Of a DNA stretch of 18,288 nt, positions 6,253 through 16,441 are shown piece after piece. The notes beneath the pieces are model-generated. The model searched no databases. It worked only from the letters and a program-made list of their open reading frames with translations, and had not been told where the DNA came from. This stretch comes from a virus. Lineage: Duplodnaviria; Heunggongvirae; Uroviricota; Caudoviricetes. A program made the position numbers and the translations under genes. The stretch lies in the IMG/VR virus record IMGVR_UViG_2703718771_000014; one strand, 5' to 3'. Within the stretch, counting starts at the first letter, position 1, and each line of letters begins with the position of its first letter.

Positions 6253-6284
6253 GCCTGCACAGTGTGCAGGCTTTCTTTTTTTTC
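6253..6284 (+). terminator. Plus-strand intrinsic terminator-like hairpin between racC and recE (antisense to the operon)
   Basis: GCCTGCACA-G-TGTGCAGGC stem followed by TTTCTTTTTTTT on the plus strand. On the minus strand the hairpin is not followed by a U tract. Confidence 0.45.
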
Positions 6285-6311
6285 AGATTTCACCCTTTGA
6301 TTTCATTGCAA

Positions 6312-6557
6312 TCAGAGTTGCCAGAAATTCGGCTTTTTTTCTGCGGGCAGATTCTTTCCGATATGCACCAGGCACATTTTTTTGACGCCTTCGTTAAGTG
6401 TTTTAACGTTGCCTGATGGACCGTCGATATCAACCACAGTGAAAGGGGTTTCTTTATTTTCTGTTTTAATCACGTAGCCAATACGCTTTCCTTCCAGGCT
6501 GACTTCGTGAACAATGTCATCAGTAGTAACAACAGTGGCTTCATAACTGGTAATCAT
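6312..6557 (-). CDS. racC: RacC, small Rac prophage protein
   Basis: The ATG at 6557 is preceded by AAGGAG. The translation MITSYEATVVTTDDIVHEVSLEGKRIGYVIKTENK... matches my recollection of K-12 RacC. The track ORF extends upstream to 6605. Confidence 0.8.
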   Translation of the reverse strand: MITSYEATVVTTDDIVHEVSLEGKRIGYVIKTENKETPFTVVDIDGPSGNVKTLNEGVKKMCLVHIGKNLPAEKKPNFWQL

Positions 6558-7023: not shown

Positions 7024-7592
7024 AATTATCTCCATTTTTACAAATGAATTTTGTCGATGCGGTGCCTGGTGCCTCCAGGTGACGTTAACCAGTTAACAAT
7101 TAACGCCGGATACAGAGAATCCACCCATAACACTGTTTTTGGTTTTAACTGTTCCGCGTGCGCTTAGCCGCATTCACCGCATCACAAAATTCACTTTAAA
7201 AAGGGCGGCAGAGCAGCCACGGAGTAAAACTGATACCGCCAAACGTCACCAGAAAATTGATAACAGAGGGCGTTGCAGCGGGGTTGTCACTTAAGCGTAT
7301 GGTCAACCTGACAACCCGGTGTCCTCAATGGGGAAGGAATAACCCCGCCATACTTACCGCCGCGCCATTTCGCGGAGTGCCACAACCGGAAGCGCACGTT
7401 CGAAGAAATCTAACGACAAGCCTTCTGAGGGAAAGAGCTTCGCCGTACGCTTTCGCGTTATGCCCTGACTTTTCAGGGAAATATCCTTTCAGTAAACTGT
7501 CAGTACCGGATTCTTATCCGTGTCCGGCGCACGACCACACGTGACAGCGTGTTGGTCTCCATTTTTAACCCAGAACCTCAATGGAGGATAAA

Positions 7593-7802
7593 ATGCCAAA
7601 CAAAAAAAGAAATCCGCTTATTGAAAAACAGATTGAATGCCTGGTAAATCAACTCAGGCAATCAGGGTTATTAAAAACTCATTCAGAGTTGAGGCTCACA
7701 GAATCAGCATTCGACGATAAATTAAATAATGTCCTTTATAATGGCATTATTGATTTTAATCGTTCTGTTGGTCGCCGCGGCCCTGCTGGTGTTTCCTTAT
7801 AA
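7593..7802 (+). CDS. Hypothetical 69-aa protein, convergent with the 212-aa gene
   Basis: The ATG at 7593 is preceded by GGAGGA at 5-nt spacing. The stop codon (7800..7802) abuts the stop of the minus-strand gene (7803..7805). The gene looks AT-rich by eye. No family recognised. Confidence 0.45.
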   Translation: MPNKKRNPLIEKQIECLVNQLRQSGLLKTHSELRLTESAFDDKLNNVLYNGIIDFNRSVGRRGPAGVSL

Positions 7803-8441
7803 TTACCAGTCAATCCAGAGTGGACCGTGTTCAGCGTAAATATAACTGTACACATCCAGATTATATTTGTGGTCTGTTAAGAACAGGCCGCAAATACATG
7901 CCGAAGCTTCCAGTGCAGCGGCTCTGTTACTGAATAACCATGTAGCAACATTCCAGCGTTTTTCTGCATCCCAGTCTTTCTCAAGGCCTGATACCATGAA
8001 GAAACCGTTAGTGTTGCCATCAAATAATTCTGTTTCCAAATTTTTAAGCAATGCCTGATGGACTCTTGCCAGGTATTCCGCCGGAATTTCGCCACGAATT
8101 CTGATGAGATTGTCATAAACAAACATGTTCCCCGCATATGGCGATTTTTCTTTCTTGTTTTTTAAACCAGCATCATGAGCAAACTGATCAATTTCTTCTT
8201 CCGTTGGTTTCGTATTGATGTTTTGCGCTGTCGTTTCTGCAATTTTATTTGCCACACTCTCTGAGTCGTGTTTATTTATAGACGCACAGAAATACAATCC
8301 GGTAAACGCATCGCGCACATTACGAGCCATATTATCAGTGTCTTTTTTCGTTACCGATTCCAATTCAAGTTCGTTCAGACGATGACGAAGTGTGTGTGCT
8401 GCAATCTCCTGGATTGAAGGAGGTAAATCTTTAAATTCCAT
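7803..8441 (-). CDS. Hypothetical 212-aa protein with no recognisable family; downstream gene of the repressor-adjacent module
   Basis: Track ORF 7803..8453. The ATG at 8441 (MEFKDLPPS...) is preceded by GAGG at about 8 nt. There is an 11-nt gap to the upstream small gene. I see no Walker A motif, no predicted transmembrane segment and no familiar nuclease motif. Confidence 0.7.
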   Translation of the reverse strand: MEFKDLPPSIQEIAAHTLRHRLNELELESVTKKDTDNMARNVRDAFTGLYFCASINKHDSESVANKIAETTAQNINTKPTEEEIDQFAHDAGLKNKKEKSPYAGNMFVYDNLIRIRGEIPAEYLARVHQALLKNLETELFDGNTNGFFMVSGLEKDWDAEKRWNVATWLFSNRAAALEASACICGLFLTDHKYNLDVYSYIYAEHGPLWIDW

Positions 8442-8452
8442 CGTCAACCTCA

Positions 8453-8605
8453 TTAGTCGGAGTTTCTTGCTAACCAGCGATGCGCGCCAGCTTCGGTTTT
8501 AAACGATTTGCTTTTGGTATACGTCATGGCGGTGAATGTGCCGTCCTGATTGGGAAACACGCCACATACCAGAGATTCGTTGTTGCCAAGATCGATAGTA
8601 TCCAT
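8453..8605 (-). CDS. Small 50-aa protein (possibly YdaG/YdaF-like), first gene of the module
   Basis: The track ORF starts at a TTG at 8668. The internal ATG at 8605 is preceded by GAGG at 7 nt and gives MDTIDLGNNESLVCGVFPNQDGTFTAMTYTKSKSFKTEAGAHRWLARNSD. Confidence 0.55.
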   Translation of the reverse strand: MDTIDLGNNESLVCGVFPNQDGTFTAMTYTKSKSFKTEAGAHRWLARNSD

Positions 8606-8785
8606 GTTGACCTCATTTCCCCTTAACGCCGGGTGGCGGAACGTTTTATCTACTGCGCTTTGTATCAATCAACAACTGCCGTCATGTTCGTATGCCTCAG
8701 GCTGGCTACTTAGCCCTGTTCAGTGGCTGGATAACTCGAGGTATTGTCCAGCCGTTCTCTGGTGGGGCGTTGTTTGGATATGCTT

Positions 8786-8814
8786 ATTAAACACAATGCG
8801 TTTTCTTATGTCAA
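8786..8814 (-). promoter_or_regulatory. Sigma70-type promoter for the module (TTGACA-17-TTTAAT on the minus strand), flanked by operator-like AACAC-N5-GTGTT sites
   Basis: Minus-strand read: cgtgTTGACAtaagaaaacgcattgtgTTTAATaagc. Operator-like site B (8813..8827) overlaps the -35 edge and site C (8790..8804, one mismatch) overlaps the -10. Confidence 0.55.
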
Positions 8815-8855
8815 CACGAAATGTGTTTTGTGGTGGGTGTCATATGATGATGGTA

Positions 8856-8880
8856 CAAAAAAGCCCGCTGATAGCGGGCT
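8856..8880 (-). terminator. Intrinsic terminator downstream of the repressor gene
   Basis: On the minus strand: AGCCCGC-TATCA-GCGGGCT followed by TTTTTTG, placed 30 nt after the repressor stop. Confidence 0.7.
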
Positions 8881-8910
8881 GATTGGCATATTACTGTGAT
8901 AGCAAGATCA

Positions 8911-9330
8911 TTACTCCGGTGGGGGATTATCTTTAAGCCTGCCTCTCAAATATTTTTCTACATACTCATCGATTTCTTTTAGCCGGACTTCAAATAGCTC
9001 AATCATTCGTTGTTGTTCTGAGCCAGGTAGCTGGTTAAACAACTCAAGAAGTTTTCGTTGGGATTCATTTAACCACAATTCAGAAGATTCCTGTTCTCCA
9101 AATAGGAGCTCAGGAGGAGATATGCCAAGTGCCTTTCCCAATACGACAGCGTCATGCACTCCAACATTTCTGCTGCCCGCCTCATAGTTACCTATACGCG
9201 ATTGCGTCCATCCGCAGATTTCAGCAAGTTTTCCTTGAGATAAACCAAGCTTCTGCCTGCGCTCTTTAAGACGCATTGCAATTTTGTCATTGAGCCTACT
9301 AGCGGCAATTTTTTCGTTTTCTTTTTCCAT
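8911..9330 (-). CDS. Prophage repressor, XRE-family HTH (CI/RacR analogue), 139 aa, no S24 peptidase domain
   Basis: Track ORF with an HTH segment (LGLSQGKLAEICGWTQSRIGNYEAG). It is divergent from the Cro-like gene across a 96-bp region carrying palindromes, followed by its own terminator. It is too short to carry a LexA-like autocleavage domain. Confidence 0.85.
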   Translation of the reverse strand: MEKENEKIAASRLNDKIAMRLKERRQKLGLSQGKLAEICGWTQSRIGNYEAGSRNVGVHDAVVLGKALGISPPELLFGEQESSELWLNESQRKLLELFNQLPGSEQQRMIELFEVRLKEIDEYVEKYLRGRLKDNPPPE

Positions 9331-9426
9331 TGCATCCTTGTATCACGAATCGTGATTTACATAAAACACAAAACAGATTGACCATATAACACAAGGTGTG
9401 TTTAAAATTGTCATCGGAGGTTTTCA
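9331..9426. promoter_or_regulatory. Divergent immunity control region with two distinct palindromes and a candidate Cro-side promoter
   Basis: Perfect 7-1-7 palindrome ATCACGA-A-TCGTGAT at 9342..9356. AACAC-aaggt-GTGTT at 9388..9402. Plus-strand TTGACC (9378..9383), 17-nt spacer, TTTAAA (9401..9406), then GGAGG (9416..9420) and the ATG at 9427. Confidence 0.6.
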
Positions 9427-9669
9427 ATGAACAAAATTTCAACATATCGAAAACAGCTTGGGCTGTCTCAAAGACAACTTGCTGTTCAGTTAGGGTGGAT
9501 ACAAAGCCGACTGGCAAATTACGAAGCAAATTTTCGTACCCCTGGACTAGAGGAGTGCAGAAAAATTGTTTCTACCCTTAATCGGCTTGGCGCTCATTGT
9601 GGACTTGACGATGTATTCCCCCCAGACGGTAAGCATAGCGAAAACAGCATAGGAGCGGTTGATTCATGA
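9427..9669 (+). CDS. Cro-like / YdaS-like XRE HTH regulator, 80 aa
   Basis: Track ORF with a GGAGG SD and an HTH segment (LGLSQRQLAVQLGWIQSRLANYE). It is divergent from the repressor and its stop overlaps the next start (ATGA at 9666..9669). Confidence 0.8.
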   Translation: MNKISTYRKQLGLSQRQLAVQLGWIQSRLANYEANFRTPGLEECRKIVSTLNRLGAHCGLDDVFPPDGKHSENSIGAVDS

Positions 9670-10088
9670 AAATCAGGCATGAGCACATCGAATCAGTGTT
9701 GTTAGCCCTGGCAGCCGAAAAAGGGCAGGCGTGGGTCGCTAACGCAATTACTGAAGAATATCTGCGCCAGGGGGGCGGCGAATTGCCCCTTGTACCAGGC
9801 AAGGACTGGAACAATCAGCAGAATATCTATCACCGTTGGTTGAAAGGTGAAACGAAAGCGCAAAGGGAAAAAATTCAGAAACTGATCCCTGCGGTTCTGG
9901 CAATTCTTCCGCGCGAGCTGCGTCACCGACTCTGCATCTTCGATACCCTGGAACGCCGTGCATTACTGGCGGCGCAGGAAGCGTTGAGTACGGCAATTGA
10001 TGCGCATGATGATGCAGTCCAGGCCGTTTACCGGAAAGCACATTTCAGCGGTGGTGGGTCGCCCGGCGATTCTGTCGTAGTGCATTGA
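9666..10088 (+). CDS. YdaT-like (CII-like fold) protein, 140 aa
   Basis: Track ORF, translationally coupled to the Cro-like gene. The MKI.HEHI start, the C-terminal ...VVH end and the 140-aa length resemble K-12 YdaT as I recall it. Confidence 0.7.
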   Translation: MKIRHEHIESVLLALAAEKGQAWVANAITEEYLRQGGGELPLVPGKDWNNQQNIYHRWLKGETKAQREKIQKLIPAVLAILPRELRHRLCIFDTLERRALLAAQEALSTAIDAHDDAVQAVYRKAHFSGGGSPGDSVVVH

Positions 10089-10165
10089 TTGAAATTGATC
10101 GTGCCGGATTGTTTTGTTCGGTATCAGTTAAATGTAACGCTGCGAGCGTTACAAGGTGAAAACAA

Positions 10166-10954
10166 ATGGCTTCAAACTGGATAAAGCTCGAGGTTATTAC
10201 GCCGGATAAGCCGGAAATATTCAGGCTTGCTGAGATTCTGAATATTGATCCAGATGCCGCATTAGGGAAGGTTATTCGCTTCTGGGCATGGGCGGATCAA
10301 CAAATGATAGACGGTAATGCAGATTGTAACGCTCGCGGCGTTACAAAAAGTGCAATAGACCGCATCACTTTTATGGCTGGTTTTGCTGATGCGTTAATTC
10401 AGGTTGGATGGCTGGTCGAAAATGACGGTGGGCTTTCTCTACCTAACTTTGAACGTCATAACGGAAAAAGCTCTAAAAAACGGGCGGTTACAAACGAGCG
10501 AGTTACAAAAATACGCGAACTGAAACGAAAAGGTAACGCTGGCAGCGTTACACAAACGGATCAAAAAGCGTTACCAGAGGAAGAGGAAGAGGAAGATATA
10601 AATACTGATCTCCCCCTAAATCCCCCTCGCCAAAAACGAGCGTCTAAAAAATTCGAGCCGGAGGCTATCGAGCTGCCTGACTGGTTGCCGGAAACACTCT
10701 GGCATGAGTGGGTTAAGTTCAGGCAGGCATTGCGAAAACCGATTCGAACGGAGCAGGGCGCTAACGGGGCGATACGGGAGCTGGAAAAATTCCGTCAGCA
10801 GGGTTTTACACCTGAGCAGGTGATTCGACACAGCATCGCCAATGAATACCAGGGCCTGTTCGCGCCGAAAGGTGTTCGGCCTGAGACGTTGCTCCGACAG
10901 GTTAACACTGTCTCGTTGCCGGACAGTGCGATCCCGCCAGGCTTCAGGGGGTAA
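10166..10954 (+). CDS. Replication initiation / replisome organiser protein (lambda O-like N-terminal domain), 262 aa
   Basis: Track ORF with an AGGTGA SD. The N-terminus (NWIKLEVITPDKPEIFRLAEIL...) resembles the phage replisome-organiser N domain. It has an acidic EEEEEED linker, internal iterons, and sits directly upstream of the DnaC-like gene. Confidence 0.75.
   Translation: MASNWIKLEVITPDKPEIFRLAEILNIDPDAALGKVIRFWAWADQQMIDGNADCNARGVTKSAIDRITFMAGFADALIQVGWLVENDGGLSLPNFERHNGKSSKKRAVTNERVTKIRELKRKGNAGSVTQTDQKALPEEEEEEDINTDLPLNPPRQKRASKKFEPEAIELPDWLPETLWHEWVKFRQALRKPIRTEQGANGAIRELEKFRQQGFTPEQVIRHSIANEYQGLFAPKGVRPETLLRQVNTVSLPDSAIPPGFRG
10326..10575. repeat. Iteron cluster (GTAACGC-N5-GCGTTAC and GTTAC half-sites) inside the O-like gene; putative replication origin
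   Basis: Inverted repeats at 10326..10344 and 10533..10551. GTTAC half-sites at 10487..10491, 10502..10506 and 10570..10574, followed by GAGGAA repeats and an A+T-rich stretch. A fourth palindrome lies upstream of the gene at 10134..10152. Confidence 0.55.
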
Positions 10955-10960
10955 CGGACC

Positions 10961-11707
10961 ATGAAAAATATTGCGACAGGCGGCGTTCTGGAACGCATCC
11001 GCCGACTGACCCCGCCACATGTAACCGCCCCATTCAGAACGGTAGCGGAGTGGCGCGAGTGGCAACTTGCTGAAGGCCAGAAACGTAGCGAGGAGATCAA
11101 CCGCCTGAATCGCCAGTTGCGGGTGGAAAAAATTCTGAATCGTTCAGGCATCCAGCCGTTGCACCGTAAATGCTCGTTTGCGAATTACCAGGTGCAGAAC
11201 GACGGCCAGCGATACGCGTTAAGCCAGGCGAAATCCATCGCCGATGAACTGATGACCGGGTGTACAAATTTTGCGTTCAGCGGAAAACCTGGTACCGGGA
11301 AGAATCACTTAGCGGCAGCTATCGGGAATCGCCTGCTGAAAGACGGTCAGACAGTGATTGTGGTTACCGTGGCTGATGTTATGAGCGCCCTGCACGCCAG
11401 CTATGACGACGGGCAGTCAGGCGAAAAATTTTTGCGGGAGCTGTGCGAAGTAGATCTGCTGGTTCTTGATGAAATTGGCATTCAGCGCGAGACGAAAAAC
11501 GAGCAGGTGGTGCTGCACCAGATTGTTGATCGCCGGACAGCGTCGATGCGCAGCGTGGGGATGCTGACAAACCTGAACTATGAGGCCATGAAAACATTGC
11601 TCGGCGAGCGGATTATGGATCGCATGACCATGAACGGCGGGCGATGGGTGAATTTTAACTGGGAGAGCTGGCGTCCGAATGTCGTCCAGCCAGGAATTGC
11701 GAAGTGA
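10961..11707 (+). CDS. DnaC-like helicase loader / IstB-type AAA+ ATPase (YdaV-like), 248 aa
   Basis: Track ORF with a Walker A motif ([10 protein letters not shown]) and a Walker B-like motif (LLVLDEIG). It follows the O-like gene. Confidence 0.9.
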
Positions 11708-11729
11708 TTTTTACCGGGAGGAAGTTTTA

Positions 11730-12499
11730 ATGGAAACCGTATTGCATGCACTGAAAGCGATGGGTAAAGCCAATTCTGTTGAACTGGCGGCGCGGCTTGA
11801 TATCAGCCGTGAAGAAGTTCTCAACGAACTGTGGGAACTCAAAAAAATGGCGTTGTTGATAAAACGGGTCACACCTGGTTTCTGGCTGGTGAAGGTGAAT
11901 CCGGGGTAACCGAAGAGCAGCCAGCACAGTCTGAAGTACCGGATGTGCTGACCGGGGAGGTCGAACAAAAAGTTACCGCGGACATGATGATTGAGTTTAT
12001 CTGTCAGGATGGGGCTAAAACGTGTGAGGAACTGGCGGATAAGTTCGGTGTTAGCATTCGCAAGGTTGCTTCCACGTTGGCGGTCGTAACAGCAACGGGG
12101 CGCCTGGCACGCGTAAATCAGAACGGTAAATTTCGTTACTGCATACCGGGCGCTGATTTACCGGCAGAGCCGGAAGCTGCATCGGTAACGGAAACCGATG
12201 GTAAAGCCTTTCCTCAGCCAACAGGTGTTGCGTTACCAGTCCGGGAAGCGGAAACACAGGAAGAAATAAAAACTGAAAGTGTGGCGGTCACAGTGCAGTC
12301 ACAGCCGTTGTTCACCAGAAAACATCCGGATGGTCTGATTTTACCATCGCTGCATGTGGCTAACCGCGAGCTGCGCCGGGCAAAAGGTCAGGTTCAGAAG
12401 TGGGAGCGTGTCTGCGCCGCGCTGCGGGAGCTGAACAAGCACCGGGATATTGTTCGGCAGATTGTCGATTCATCCGGTCGTATTGTGTCGGAAAAGTGA
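11730..12499 (+). pseudogene. Two-domain winged-helix (DUF1627-like) gene split by a -1 frameshift at an A7 run (11841..11847)
   Basis: Frame A (ATG 11730, GGAGG SD) reads [39 protein letters not shown] and stops at 11909. Frame B (track ORF 11831..12499) starts at a GTG with no SD and carries a second copy of the same domain (MIEFICQDGAKTCEELADKFGVSIRKVAS...). One extra A in the run would fuse the frames. Confidence 0.6.
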
Positions 12500-12514
12500 T
12501 TGCCGGAGGCGCTT

Positions 12515-12721
12515 ATGGCGAAACCTTTTACACACGAACAGCGTGAAGAACTGAAGGCCCGAATTATCGGGCTGGTACGCAAAAATGAACGCATGACGAT
12601 ATCACAACTGGAGAGAGCGACGGGAGCAGGCTGGCATTCAGTCAGACGTTGCCTTGTGGATGTACTGGCTTGTGGCGATTTATACATGCCCGGTAAATAC
12701 GGTGTTTTTACATCAGAATAG
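12515..12721 (+). CDS. Hypothetical small protein, 68 aa
   Basis: The ATG at 12515 is preceded by GGAGG at 5 nt. The track ORF starts at a TTG at 12500. Confidence 0.5.
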   Translation: MAKPFTHEQREELKARIIGLVRKNERMTISQLERATGAGWHSVRRCLVDVLACGDLYMPGKYGVFTSE

Positions 12722-12910
12722 GTGTATCGCGTATGGCGTAAGGCAGCGGAGAAAACAACCGACCAGACATTGATTCGAAAGTTACCAGACGGAGAAATAC
12801 GCCGCTACGACAGACAACAGAACATAATCTGTGGCGAGTGCCGGAAGAGTGAAGTTATGCTGCGTGTACTGGCGTTCTATCAGGGCAATTTTCAGGAGGC
12901 GGTACTGTGA
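12722..12910 (+). CDS. Hypothetical small protein with a CxxC pair, 62 aa, GTG start
   Basis: The GTG start directly abuts the upstream TAG stop and there is no SD. Its stop overlaps the next GTG (GTGA). Confidence 0.3.
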   Translation: MYRVWRKAAEKTTDQTLIRKLPDGEIRRYDRQQNIICGECRKSEVMLRVLAFYQGNFQEAVL

Positions 12911-12966
12911 GTGAATTAGCTATCAGGCTTCAATTGTCGCTGGCATTCGCATCAAAGGAGAATGAG

Positions 12967-13551
12967 ATGACCACTTTTACAAAAGAGCAGTTAATCAGTC
13001 ATGTTAGTGAAAATGTAAAGGCGATGAAATTTGCAGTAAAACAGACAGCATTCAAAAATTCTCTCGAGGCAATTGAGTTGGATTTAGCACTGGCCCTTGT
13101 TGCTCAGGCTTCGCTGGAAGCAGAGCCCGTGCTTTATATGAATCGATTTACCGGAAAGACATTCTCACTGGAAGAGCAACCCGGTGCTGATAAGGAACCG
13201 GAAATATACGTGCCGCTATATGCTGCCCCGCCAGACAGCGCCGCCATGCTTCAGGCTGGAAACTTTCGGGAAAAGAAGGGTTCGTCAACCAATAATTTTC
13301 GGGAAATCTCGGAAACGTCAACCAACTATCCGGTAACTCTGGATGGTTGGATAAGCTGTAGTGAGCGAATGCCGGATGACGGTCAGCACGTAATTATTTT
13401 ATGTGATGGCGCATTCGTTCTTTATGCGCAATATCGAGACGGTGAGTTTTTTGATGTAGTCCGTGATGGTGATGAATTTTTCGAAACACAGAGCCGCAAT
13501 GTAACCGACTGGATGCCGCTACCAGAACCGCCGCAGGAGGTGCGCCAATGA
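12967..13551 (+). CDS. Hypothetical phage protein with a DUF551-like C-terminal domain, 194 aa from the ATG
   Basis: The ATG at 12967 is preceded by AAGGAG at 6 nt. The track ORF starts at a GTG at 12907. The C-terminal DGWISCSERMPDD...VTDWMPLPEPP resembles DUF551 as I recall it. Confidence 0.65.
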   Translation: MTTFTKEQLISHVSENVKAMKFAVKQTAFKNSLEAIELDLALALVAQASLEAEPVLYMNRFTGKTFSLEEQPGADKEPEIYVPLYAAPPDSAAMLQAGNFREKKGSSTNNFREISETSTNYPVTLDGWISCSERMPDDGQHVIILCDGAFVLYAQYRDGEFFDVVRDGDEFFETQSRNVTDWMPLPEPPQEVRQ

Positions 13552-13631
13552 ACTGGCCTGAAGCATTTGCAATTACAGGCGTTGCTATGGCTATCGCTTT
13601 TTTAGTATATGTTATTTGTCGGTGGGGGTAA
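13548..13631 (+). CDS. Tiny hydrophobic peptide, 27 aa, one predicted transmembrane helix (below the track cut-off; hand-translated)
   Basis: ATGA overlap with the upstream stop. The translation is MNWPEAFAITGVAMAIAFLVYVICRWG. Confidence 0.4.
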   Translation: MNWPEAFAITGVAMAIAFLVYVICRWG

Positions 13632-13666
13632 AAACGTTCGCCGGGATTAACACCAAAGGAGGGAAT

Positions 13667-13771
13667 ATGTCGGATGATATTTCACTGGCAATGGAAGGTG
13701 CGCTGGCTGTTATTGCTGTTGTGGGCGTTTACTGCCTGGTTGTGTTTTTGATGGATCGACTAGGGAACTGA
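13667..13771 (+). CDS. Tiny hydrophobic peptide, 34 aa, one predicted transmembrane helix (below the track cut-off; hand-translated)
   Basis: AGGAGG lies 4 nt upstream of the ATG. The translation is MSDDISLAMEGALAVIAVVGVYCLVVFLMDRLGN. Confidence 0.5.
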   Translation: MSDDISLAMEGALAVIAVVGVYCLVVFLMDRLGN

Positions 13772-14016
13772 ATTCATTACGATATGGGAATTCCCATATC
13801 GGGTAAAAACGGTTTGCGGTAAAGCGAGAGTTAAGTAGAATTGCTGCGGGTGCTTGAGGCTATCTGCCTCGGGCATGAACACCAACGGCAGATAGAGAAA
13901 AGCCCCAGTTAACATTACGCGTCCGGCAAGACGCTTAACATTAATCTGAGGCCATATCTATGCTCTACACACGTAGGTTAGCCTCTTACGTGCCGAAAGG
14001 CAAGGAGAAGCAGGCT

Positions 14017-14172
14017 ATGAAGCAGCAAAAGGCGATGCTAATCGCCCTGATCGTCATCTGTTTAACCGTCATTGTGACGGCACTGGTAACGAGGAAAGAC
14101 CTCTGCGAGGTACGAATCCGAACCGGCCAGACGGAGGTCGCTGTCTTCACAGCTTACGAACCTGAGGAGTAA
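14017..14172 (+). CDS. hokD: Hok/Gef-family type I toxin (HokD/RelF), 51 aa
   Basis: AGGAG lies 8 nt upstream of the ATG. The translation MKQQKAMLIALIVICLTVIVTALVTRKDLCEVRIRTGQTEVAVFTAYEPEE matches my recollection of K-12 HokD. The track ORF begins at an in-frame ATG at 13960. Confidence 0.9.
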   Translation: MKQQKAMLIALIVICLTVIVTALVTRKDLCEVRIRTGQTEVAVFTAYEPEE

Positions 14173-16171: not shown

Positions 16172-16197
16172 CTCAATCTGTTATCCGGGGCTATATT
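16168..16197 (+). promoter_or_regulatory. Late promoter candidate (PR'-like): TTGACT-18-TATATT
   Basis: TTGACT at 16168..16173 overlaps the Q-like stop codon. TATATT at 16192..16197. A hairpin (CGCCAG-caaaat-CTGGCG) lies just downstream. Confidence 0.6.
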
Positions 16198-16258
16198 CCT
16201 CACGCGCCAGCAAAATCTGGCGTCGGGATTGGAACCCCGGATAGAGACCGCGACAGAC

Positions 16259-16280
16259 ACACGCCGCGAGCGTGTTTTTT
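16259..16280 (+). terminator. Intrinsic terminator (tR'-like) about 70 nt downstream of the late promoter
   Basis: ACACGC-CGCGA-GCGTGT followed by TTTTTT. Confidence 0.7.
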
Positions 16281-16441
16281 ATTGTCGTATGCACGCGCAC
16301 ATCTGAATTATGGTGGGGCGCATGGGGGAGCTGAAAAGCTCGCCGGTCGGTTTCCCGGTAGTTCCAACCCTGTGCGTCTCACCACCCGATGATTGGAACC
16401 TGACGGTGGTGATAGTTTAGAAACCACCAGAGGGCGTCATT

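Follow-up and report, generated by a model that had tools for sequence, protein, structure and literature searches.

The stretch of DNA analysed here (the window, 18,288 nucleotides) is a Rac-like lambdoid prophage from the E. coli draft genome GCA_001607995.1, and 14,559 bp of it are 100% identical to contig LOCR01000151.1. The prophage carries intR, xisR, ralR/RalA, recT, recE, racC, ydaE, kilR, DicF, a racR-like repressor, ydaS, ydaT, ydaU and ydaV, followed by the gene under study, a ydaW-like DUF1627 gene that sits behind the O/P-like replication genes ydaU and ydaV. DUF977, DUF551 and hok/sok come after it, and then DUF1367, DUF1364 and DUF1133. Above the Rfam gathering score are RalA, DicF, sok, isrK and the C4 antisense RNA with its a1/b1 targets (1557-1735, 7203-7254 on the minus strand, 13848-14022 and 16191-16389), the usual small-RNA complement for a Rac-like or lambdoid prophage. 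No RNA family was found by the Rfam scan within the DUF1627 gene itself (11730-12499).

The DUF1627 gene occupies 11730-12499 on the plus strand and measures 770 nt, as compared with 771 nt in intact alleles, which encode a tandem winged-helix protein with a long C-terminal helix. A Shine-Dalgarno sequence, GGGAGGAAG (11716-11724, plus strand), can be read directly from the DNA, with its GGAGG core (11717-11721) 8 nt before the ATG at 11730, and the start that PGAP assigns in relatives agrees with this ATG. The ORF that opens here (ORF1, 11730-11909, plus strand) encodes 59 residues, of which 1-39 are native and correspond to helices 1-3 of the first winged helix, and the following 20 are out of frame and end at a premature TAA (11907-11909). 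The remainder of the gene lies in the -1 frame relative to ORF1, in an ORF of 222 codons counted from a GTG (ORF2, 11831-12499, plus strand). ORF2 covers the domain 1 wing and the linker behind it, the second winged helix, and the C-terminal helix with the low-complexity linker before it, and the match to the Pfam DUF1627 model within it begins at residue 91 in the numbering of the repaired protein. The two ORFs overlap by 79 nt, and inside the overlap lies a homopolymer of seven A (A7, 11841-11847, plus strand, codons AAA AAA A), the site of a -1 contraction from A8. In intact alleles, the A8 run is read as AAA AAA AAT and encodes Lys38-Lys39-Asn40 at the end of helix 3.

An earlier note on this DNA had described two ORFs offset by -1 that overlap across the A7 run, the second with a GTG start lacking a Shine-Dalgarno sequence, and had proposed that one extra A would join them into a single protein. 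The coordinates and frames hold, and no Shine-Dalgarno-like sequence is visible 5-12 nt before GTG 11831. ATG 11984/11987 in ORF2 is likewise not preceded by one, and a promoter scan of 11400-13000 revealed no internal promoter able to drive ORF2 alone. Insertion of one A at the run yields a single ORF of 256 amino acids, the product of which is 100% identical over its full length (E 1e-162) to the DUF1627 protein P0001, present on 198 E. coli contigs. The single-ORF architecture of DUF1627/YdaW proteins, two winged helices and a C-terminal helix, is thus found in the window only when one A is added.

Two further genes of the window are disrupted. The racC homologue (6283-6557, minus strand) has A7 in place of the A8 of K-12 racC, seen as T7 on the plus strand at 6334-6340. 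This A7 is shared with E. coli ML35, an independent complete genome whose copy PGAP calls 'frameshifted', and among complete genomes with the same flanks the racC run is A7 in 3 and A8 in 65. The DUF977 (Ren-like, phrog_142) gene (12515-12910, plus strand) is interrupted in frame by a TAG at 12719-12721, a codon that reads CAG in relatives. Two sister copies of the prophage, L028 and L104, share this amber stop, indicating that it predates the A7 event in the DUF1627 gene. With three of its genes disrupted within 18 kb, the prophage fits the picture of a cryptic one in decay.

The region around the target is also mosaic. Relative to the ML35 prophage, a module has been swapped at about 10100-12960: the proteins on its flanks are mostly 93-100% identical, many of them 100%, as against a ydaU product of which only the C-terminal part aligns (81% at the amino acid level), 81% for DUF1627 and 64% for DUF977. 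The DUF1627 part of this segment is closest to strain OkiPb01681, and the DUF977 part to the O157:H7 allele. The O55:H7 strain DEC5E (L130) has kept DUF1627 intact, but both neighbours are pseudogenes there, ydaV through an internal stop and DUF977 as a partial gene. Which member of this three-gene module decays thus differs between lineages.

Fold and conservation of the DUF1627 protein

The repaired protein matches Pfam PF07789 with 284.6 bits (cut-off 28.1, E 2e-85) over residues 91-245, and its match to phrog_630 (E 2e-132) covers the full length. Judged by the full-length identity to P0001 and by the PF07789 score, the pair of ORFs is not due to chance. An AlphaFold2 model built on a 40-sequence alignment (mean pLDDT 79) predicts two units of the order helix-helix-helix-strand-strand, each with pLDDT >93: residues 4-52 (H4-11, H16-23, H27-39, E43-46, E49-52) and residues 84-138 (H84-94, H99-106, H110-122, E127-131, E134-138). 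Disordered linkers are predicted between and after the winged helices, and a long helix (208-254) forms the C-terminus. The frame is lost where helix 3 of the first unit ends, and the 59-residue product therefore lacks the beta-hairpin wing.

The earlier note had also claimed that the two winged-helix-like domains are homologous to each other. The two AlphaFold2 units confirm this claim, as does a profile-profile comparison of domain 1 with domain 2 (hhalign, probability 95%, E 3.4e-8); pairwise BLASTP of the two returned no alignment, and their homology is visible only at the profile level. When the repaired protein was compared by sequence with the PDB, no hit reached significance (best E 0.064). 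At the level of structure, Foldseek ranks tandem winged-helix proteins highest against the model, among them ScpB and the C-terminal domains of SelB, which likewise consist of two consecutive winged-helix domains. This likeness is one of fold only, with an overall TM-score of about 0.2-0.3 and 15-19% identity, and justifies no functional inference; neither ScpB nor SelB shares the long C-terminal helix or the disordered linkers, which are peculiar to DUF1627. The second domain of the repaired protein also resembles, weakly, the Ren-like PHROG 142, the family to which DUF977 belongs. The tandem winged-helix fold confirmed in this way is a modest addition to the description of an uncharacterised family.

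Intact alleles have a dN/dS of 0.25-0.33 in the three folded modules and of 0.56-0.79 in the linkers. By this measure of sequence change, the folded modules of the intact gene are under purifying selection and the linkers are relaxed. Synonymous divergence is low at the 5' end of the gene (pS 0.063 over 11730-11903, codons 1-58, as against 0.15-0.29 elsewhere), which may reflect ascertainment, as a 24-nt exact search pattern lies there, or a conserved recombination junction next to ydaV.

No functional study of DUF1627 or ydaW was found in the literature, where the gene appears in one mention of synteny and in one overexpression screen. In that screen, the prophage genes reported to block RcaT, the toxin of retron-Sen2, included K-12 ydaW and racC (bioRxiv 10.1101/2020.06.22.160242). 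The report provides a lead and is not a test of function. The homologues of racC and ydaW are the two genes with A8 tracts that are frameshifted in the window, which may be a coincidence.

Length of the A run and recurrence of its contraction

The comparison of run length among orthologues, which the earlier note had proposed, favours one of its readings, a frameshift-inactivated gene, and speaks against another, a slippage-prone switch. In IMG/VR, a scan for the conserved flanks separated by a gap of 6-10 nt found 113 loci, with A8 in 78, A7 in 16, the in-frame interrupted run AAAAGAAA in 13, another in-frame interrupted run, AAAGAAAA, in 5, some other state in 1 and A9 in none. The run is therefore A8 or interrupted in frame at 96 of the 113 loci, and the interrupted forms occupy whole clades on the allele tree. 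Among sequenced phages with the run context, all six have an 8-nt run, and the exact A7 context occurs in no sequenced phage of the collection. Distant full-length homologues (20-80% identity when aligned) consist of a single ORF with the three-module architecture in 39 of 39 cases, including the most distant (20-46% identity), and the Lys-Lys-Asn from which the A run arises is not conserved among them. The gene thus descends from a single ORF. The earlier note had named orthologues consistently carrying A7 with two separate conserved genes, together with the lack of a detectable fused protein, as what would refute its reading of a pseudogene or slippage-prone switch, and the pattern seen among orthologues is the opposite. 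The idea of two separate conserved genes was accordingly rejected.

The context of the run is present in 673 of the 5,426 complete E. coli genomes. Exact copies with A7 occur in 288 genomes, with A8 in 309 and with A9 in one, strain MBT-5, where PGAP annotates the gene as frameshifted. The 'frameshifted' label is attached by PGAP to the A7 and A9 copies examined. The complete genomes with exact A7 are mostly O157:H7 among the matches listed. In O157:H7 strain 2149, whose allele is divergent (86.5% DNA identity), the site is likewise A7, and PGAP labels this copy 'frameshifted'. Because the O55:H7 strain DEC5E keeps an intact A8 gene, sequence comparison suggests that the A7 of O157:H7 is a single inherited event, and the run could serve as a lineage marker, with A8 in DEC5E and A7 in the O157:H7 genomes examined. 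Strain TR01 has one A7 and one A8 copy within one assembly. The closest relative among complete genomes, OkiPb01681 (97% identity), has A8 and an intact gene of 771 nt.

The sister copies of the window are closer still. The IMG/VR contig L104 aligns with 7282-13875 of the window (6595 bp) without a mismatch and with one gap; a second IMG/VR contig, L028, aligns over 9172 bp with 3 mismatches and likewise one gap. Since both contigs have A8 in DUF1627, the lone gap of each is at the A run. As these copies differ so little from the window and have A8, the A7 of the window is either younger than any substitution in 6.6 kb or a sequence error. The split form of this exact allele was found on 2 contigs from two samples (as a call of 170 amino acids), as compared with 198 for the intact protein. 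An exact look-up of the 222- and 171-residue products of ORF2 found neither in the protein collection, where only the 170-residue call is present. The exact 59-residue product is present on at least 25 contigs, in several prophage backbones.

The same loss has occurred repeatedly. On a neighbour-joining tree of 59 alleles, constructed with the run masked, parsimony requires at least 11 independent changes between A8 and A7, a count that is approximate because these prophages recombine and because part of the sample was picked for being A7. Five alleles carry both A7 and A8 on otherwise identical sequence, and within A7 clades the alleles differ among themselves by a few bases at most. In 100 sampled copies, contraction of the A run accounts for 12 disrupted alleles and other truncations for 3. 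In all 12 A7 alleles with full gene context, the downstream frame is otherwise open to the normal stop, a pattern that is consistent with recent events, though maintenance by selection would leave it as well. The strong excess of A7 over A9 could stem from mutational bias together with clonal sampling, or from selection.

Other runs provide a control, of limited size since the loci overlap only around the target and gave few comparable runs in shared flanks; the usable ones are the A8 runs of racC and of a repressor-like gene. The latter gene (MQKKEIRRLRLKEWF...) has its run at codons 2-4, and of 12 copies 9 carry A8 and 3 carry A7. This gene lies, for example, at about 7304 in L004 and about 6654 in L006 (both plus strand), and A7 would abolish its ORF right after the start. 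A7 runs that the related loci share are mostly monomorphic. Because the racC and repressor-like runs behave like the DUF1627 run, the one-base contraction of A8 is general in these prophage sequences. The DUF1627 run looks somewhat more affected than that of racC, a comparison that is blurred by clonal sampling, especially of O157:H7.

Origin of the frameshift

The DUF1627 gene of the window was probably inactivated by a recent, non-programmed contraction of A8 to A7 at a homopolymer hot spot. The A8 run of the native gene (Lys-Lys-Asn) lies where the recognition helix of the first winged-helix domain ends. One A would then have been lost, most likely by strand slippage during replication, with a shift of the frame as the consequence. 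Ribosomes starting at ATG 11730 would stop at TAA 11907-11909, after 39 native and 20 out-of-frame residues and before the wing, and the product would presumably be without function. The second winged helix and the C-terminal helix would be left in an untranslated -1 frame without a ribosome-binding site of its own, and full-length protein would be made from the A7 allele in at most trace amounts, by accidental -1 slippage on AAA AAA. An inactivating frameshift had been among the alternatives of the earlier note, and it gains support from the A8 and the intact gene of the nearest relatives, from the 'frameshifted' label on the A7 copy of strain 2149 and from the single ORFs of the homologues. 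As expected of a pseudogene, the gene is disrupted while its nearest relatives are intact (A8 in L104 and L028) and selected (dN/dS 0.25-0.33). The recurrence of the same loss in many E. coli prophage lineages is explained by the A8 run being a mutational hot spot, and the same slip having happened many times in other strains indicates ordinary decay at such a spot and not a programmed switch.

Programmed recoding predicts features at the run that can be looked for. In the zero frame, the site reads CTC AAA AAA ATG, making the heptamer C_AAA_AAA and not X_XXY_YYZ, so that perfect re-pairing is open to the A-site tRNA only, and no in-phase slippery heptamer of the latter form is present at the run. 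The 80 nt downstream fold no more stably than shuffled sequence (-22.1 kcal/mol vs a shuffle mean of -22.5, z 0.14), and no AGGAGG-like stimulator lies 10-14 nt upstream of the run. Conservation of the two-frame layout was not found either, given the many IMG/VR loci in which the run is A8 or interrupted in frame. Transcriptional slippage matters at runs of nine or more nucleotides in many genomes (Baranov et al. 2005, PMC1088944), and the run of the window, with seven A, is below this length. With every testable defining feature having failed, programmed recoding was rejected. The slippage-prone switch of the earlier note, giving both short and long forms, is not supported as a programmed feature, as neither stimulators nor a conserved split layout were found. 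Low-level accidental slippage at A7 may still occur, since A-rich sequences are known to be slippery. If tRNA-Lys slipped by -1 on AAA AAA, the native sequence would be restored, and full-length protein might be made in trace amounts. A-rich slippery sites are discussed in PMC10861913.

Two other explanations deserve to be weighed against the inactivating contraction. It is conceivable but unlikely that the strain truly has A8 and an intact gene and that one A was dropped in the draft. In the alignments with the two sister copies, which come from other assemblies and span 6.6 kb and 9.2 kb, this base is the lone gap, and with the split allele on 2 contigs and the intact one on 198, an artefact has to be reckoned with for the A7 of the window. 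Moreover, several A7 carriers of the 59-residue product (L119-L121, L123) are assemblies with many fragmented genes, typical of long reads prone to homopolymer errors. The sister copies, however, reveal no further homopolymer discrepancy over the same 6.6 kb or 9.2 kb, the other A7 of the window, that of racC, is reproduced in the complete genome of ML35, and the split allele comes from two samples. Real inherited A7 alleles also exist, as in O157:H7, and TR01 holds A7 and A8 in one assembly. Much less likely is a functional role of the site, in slippage or in phase-variable switching, either through an on/off state at the DNA level or through an A7 allele that yields the 59-residue and the full-length protein in useful quantities, owing to transcriptional slippage or -1 ribosomal slippage. 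The occurrence of A7, A8 and A9 on otherwise identical alleles, which indicates that no other site of the gene changes as fast as the tract, would agree with a switch, as would the share of run contractions among the disruptions in the 100 sampled copies and the perfect re-pairing of tRNA-Lys in the -1 frame that AAA AAA should permit, recreating Leu-Lys-Lys-Asn-Gly. The retron-toxin screen (bioRxiv 10.1101/2020.06.22.160242) could be read in the same way, as both blockers, racC and ydaW, have A8 tracts that are contracted here. Against a switch stand the phase and length of the run and the lack of stimulators, as well as a split layout that most copies do not share, being A8 in frame, with clades that carry AAAAGAAA or AAAGAAAA and distant homologues that lack the run. 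The many O157:H7 genomes with exact A7 suggest stable inheritance and not toggling, and because other A8 runs in the same prophages vary alike, a switch does not need to be invoked.

A further idea, of low probability, is that the A8 tracts of racC and of the ydaW-like gene are contingency loci that toggle accessory, possibly anti-defence, genes of the prophage in lysogens. If this were true, repeated loss and occasional regain of an A would toggle these genes, and selection, not mutation bias alone, would account for A7 outnumbering A9 and the other kinds of disruption.

The preferred reading, a broken gene, has consequences for annotation. Where gene callers report a 59-residue 'DNA-binding protein' and a 'DUF1627' ORF of 160-220 residues, they have picked up the halves of a single broken gene. 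Two PHROG families labelled 'unknown function' appear to stem from these halves. The family phrog_16668 (59 residues) matches residues 1-56 of the intact protein and phrog_11856 (160 residues) matches residues 95-251; from these matches, both look like collections of frameshifted DUF1627 halves and not like independent genes. With at least 11 independent hits, the site is a clean natural case of a prophage gene whose decay is dominated by one 8-nt A run. The type of lesion is well known, PGAP already flags copies in other strains, and no new mechanism is revealed; the by-products are a correct gene model, a count of recurrent events and a fold assignment for DUF1627.

Comparison with known systems

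With respect to dual-frame expression, the site invites comparison with E. coli dnaX, in which programmed -1 frameshifting occurs at A_AAA_AAG. An A-rich tract of lysine codons lies where two frames overlap in both cases, and, as in dnaX and in the programmed transcriptional slippage of IS elements and Shigella mxiE, a -1 shift or the insertion of one A in the mRNA would restore the full protein. Unlike dnaX, the window has no in-phase slippery heptamer, no stimulators and no conserved two-frame layout, and whereas the IS elements and mxiE use runs of nine or more A/T, the run here has 7 A. The contingency loci of Neisseria, Haemophilus and Campylobacter also have an intragenic homopolymer whose length varies between otherwise identical alleles, and such polymorphism is found here (five alleles with A7 and A8, and A9 once), with A8 corresponding to ON and A7/A9 to OFF. 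The tract is, however, short for one of the A/T type, no sign of reversion was seen, other A8 runs vary comparably, and the OFF state is found in most O157:H7 genomes among the matches listed, consistent with stable inheritance.

The YdaW/DUF1627 genes (PF07789, phrog_630) of Rac-like and other lambdoid prophages occupy the same position, after ydaU and ydaV and before DUF977, whereas in the window the deletion of 1 nt has divided the ORF. The ydaW of K-12 seems to be truncated by another route, as only its 5' part matches and a lysis-protein gene is annotated alongside. Homopolymer-frameshift pseudogenes of cryptic prophages provide further parallels. The racC A7 allele of ML35 represents the same type of lesion, present also in the racC of the window. 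The DUF1627 gene of O157:H7 strain 2149 has the identical A8 to A7 lesion at the identical site, and, as the allele of the window is otherwise identical to A8 copies, the event in the window is independent of that in strain 2149 and much younger.
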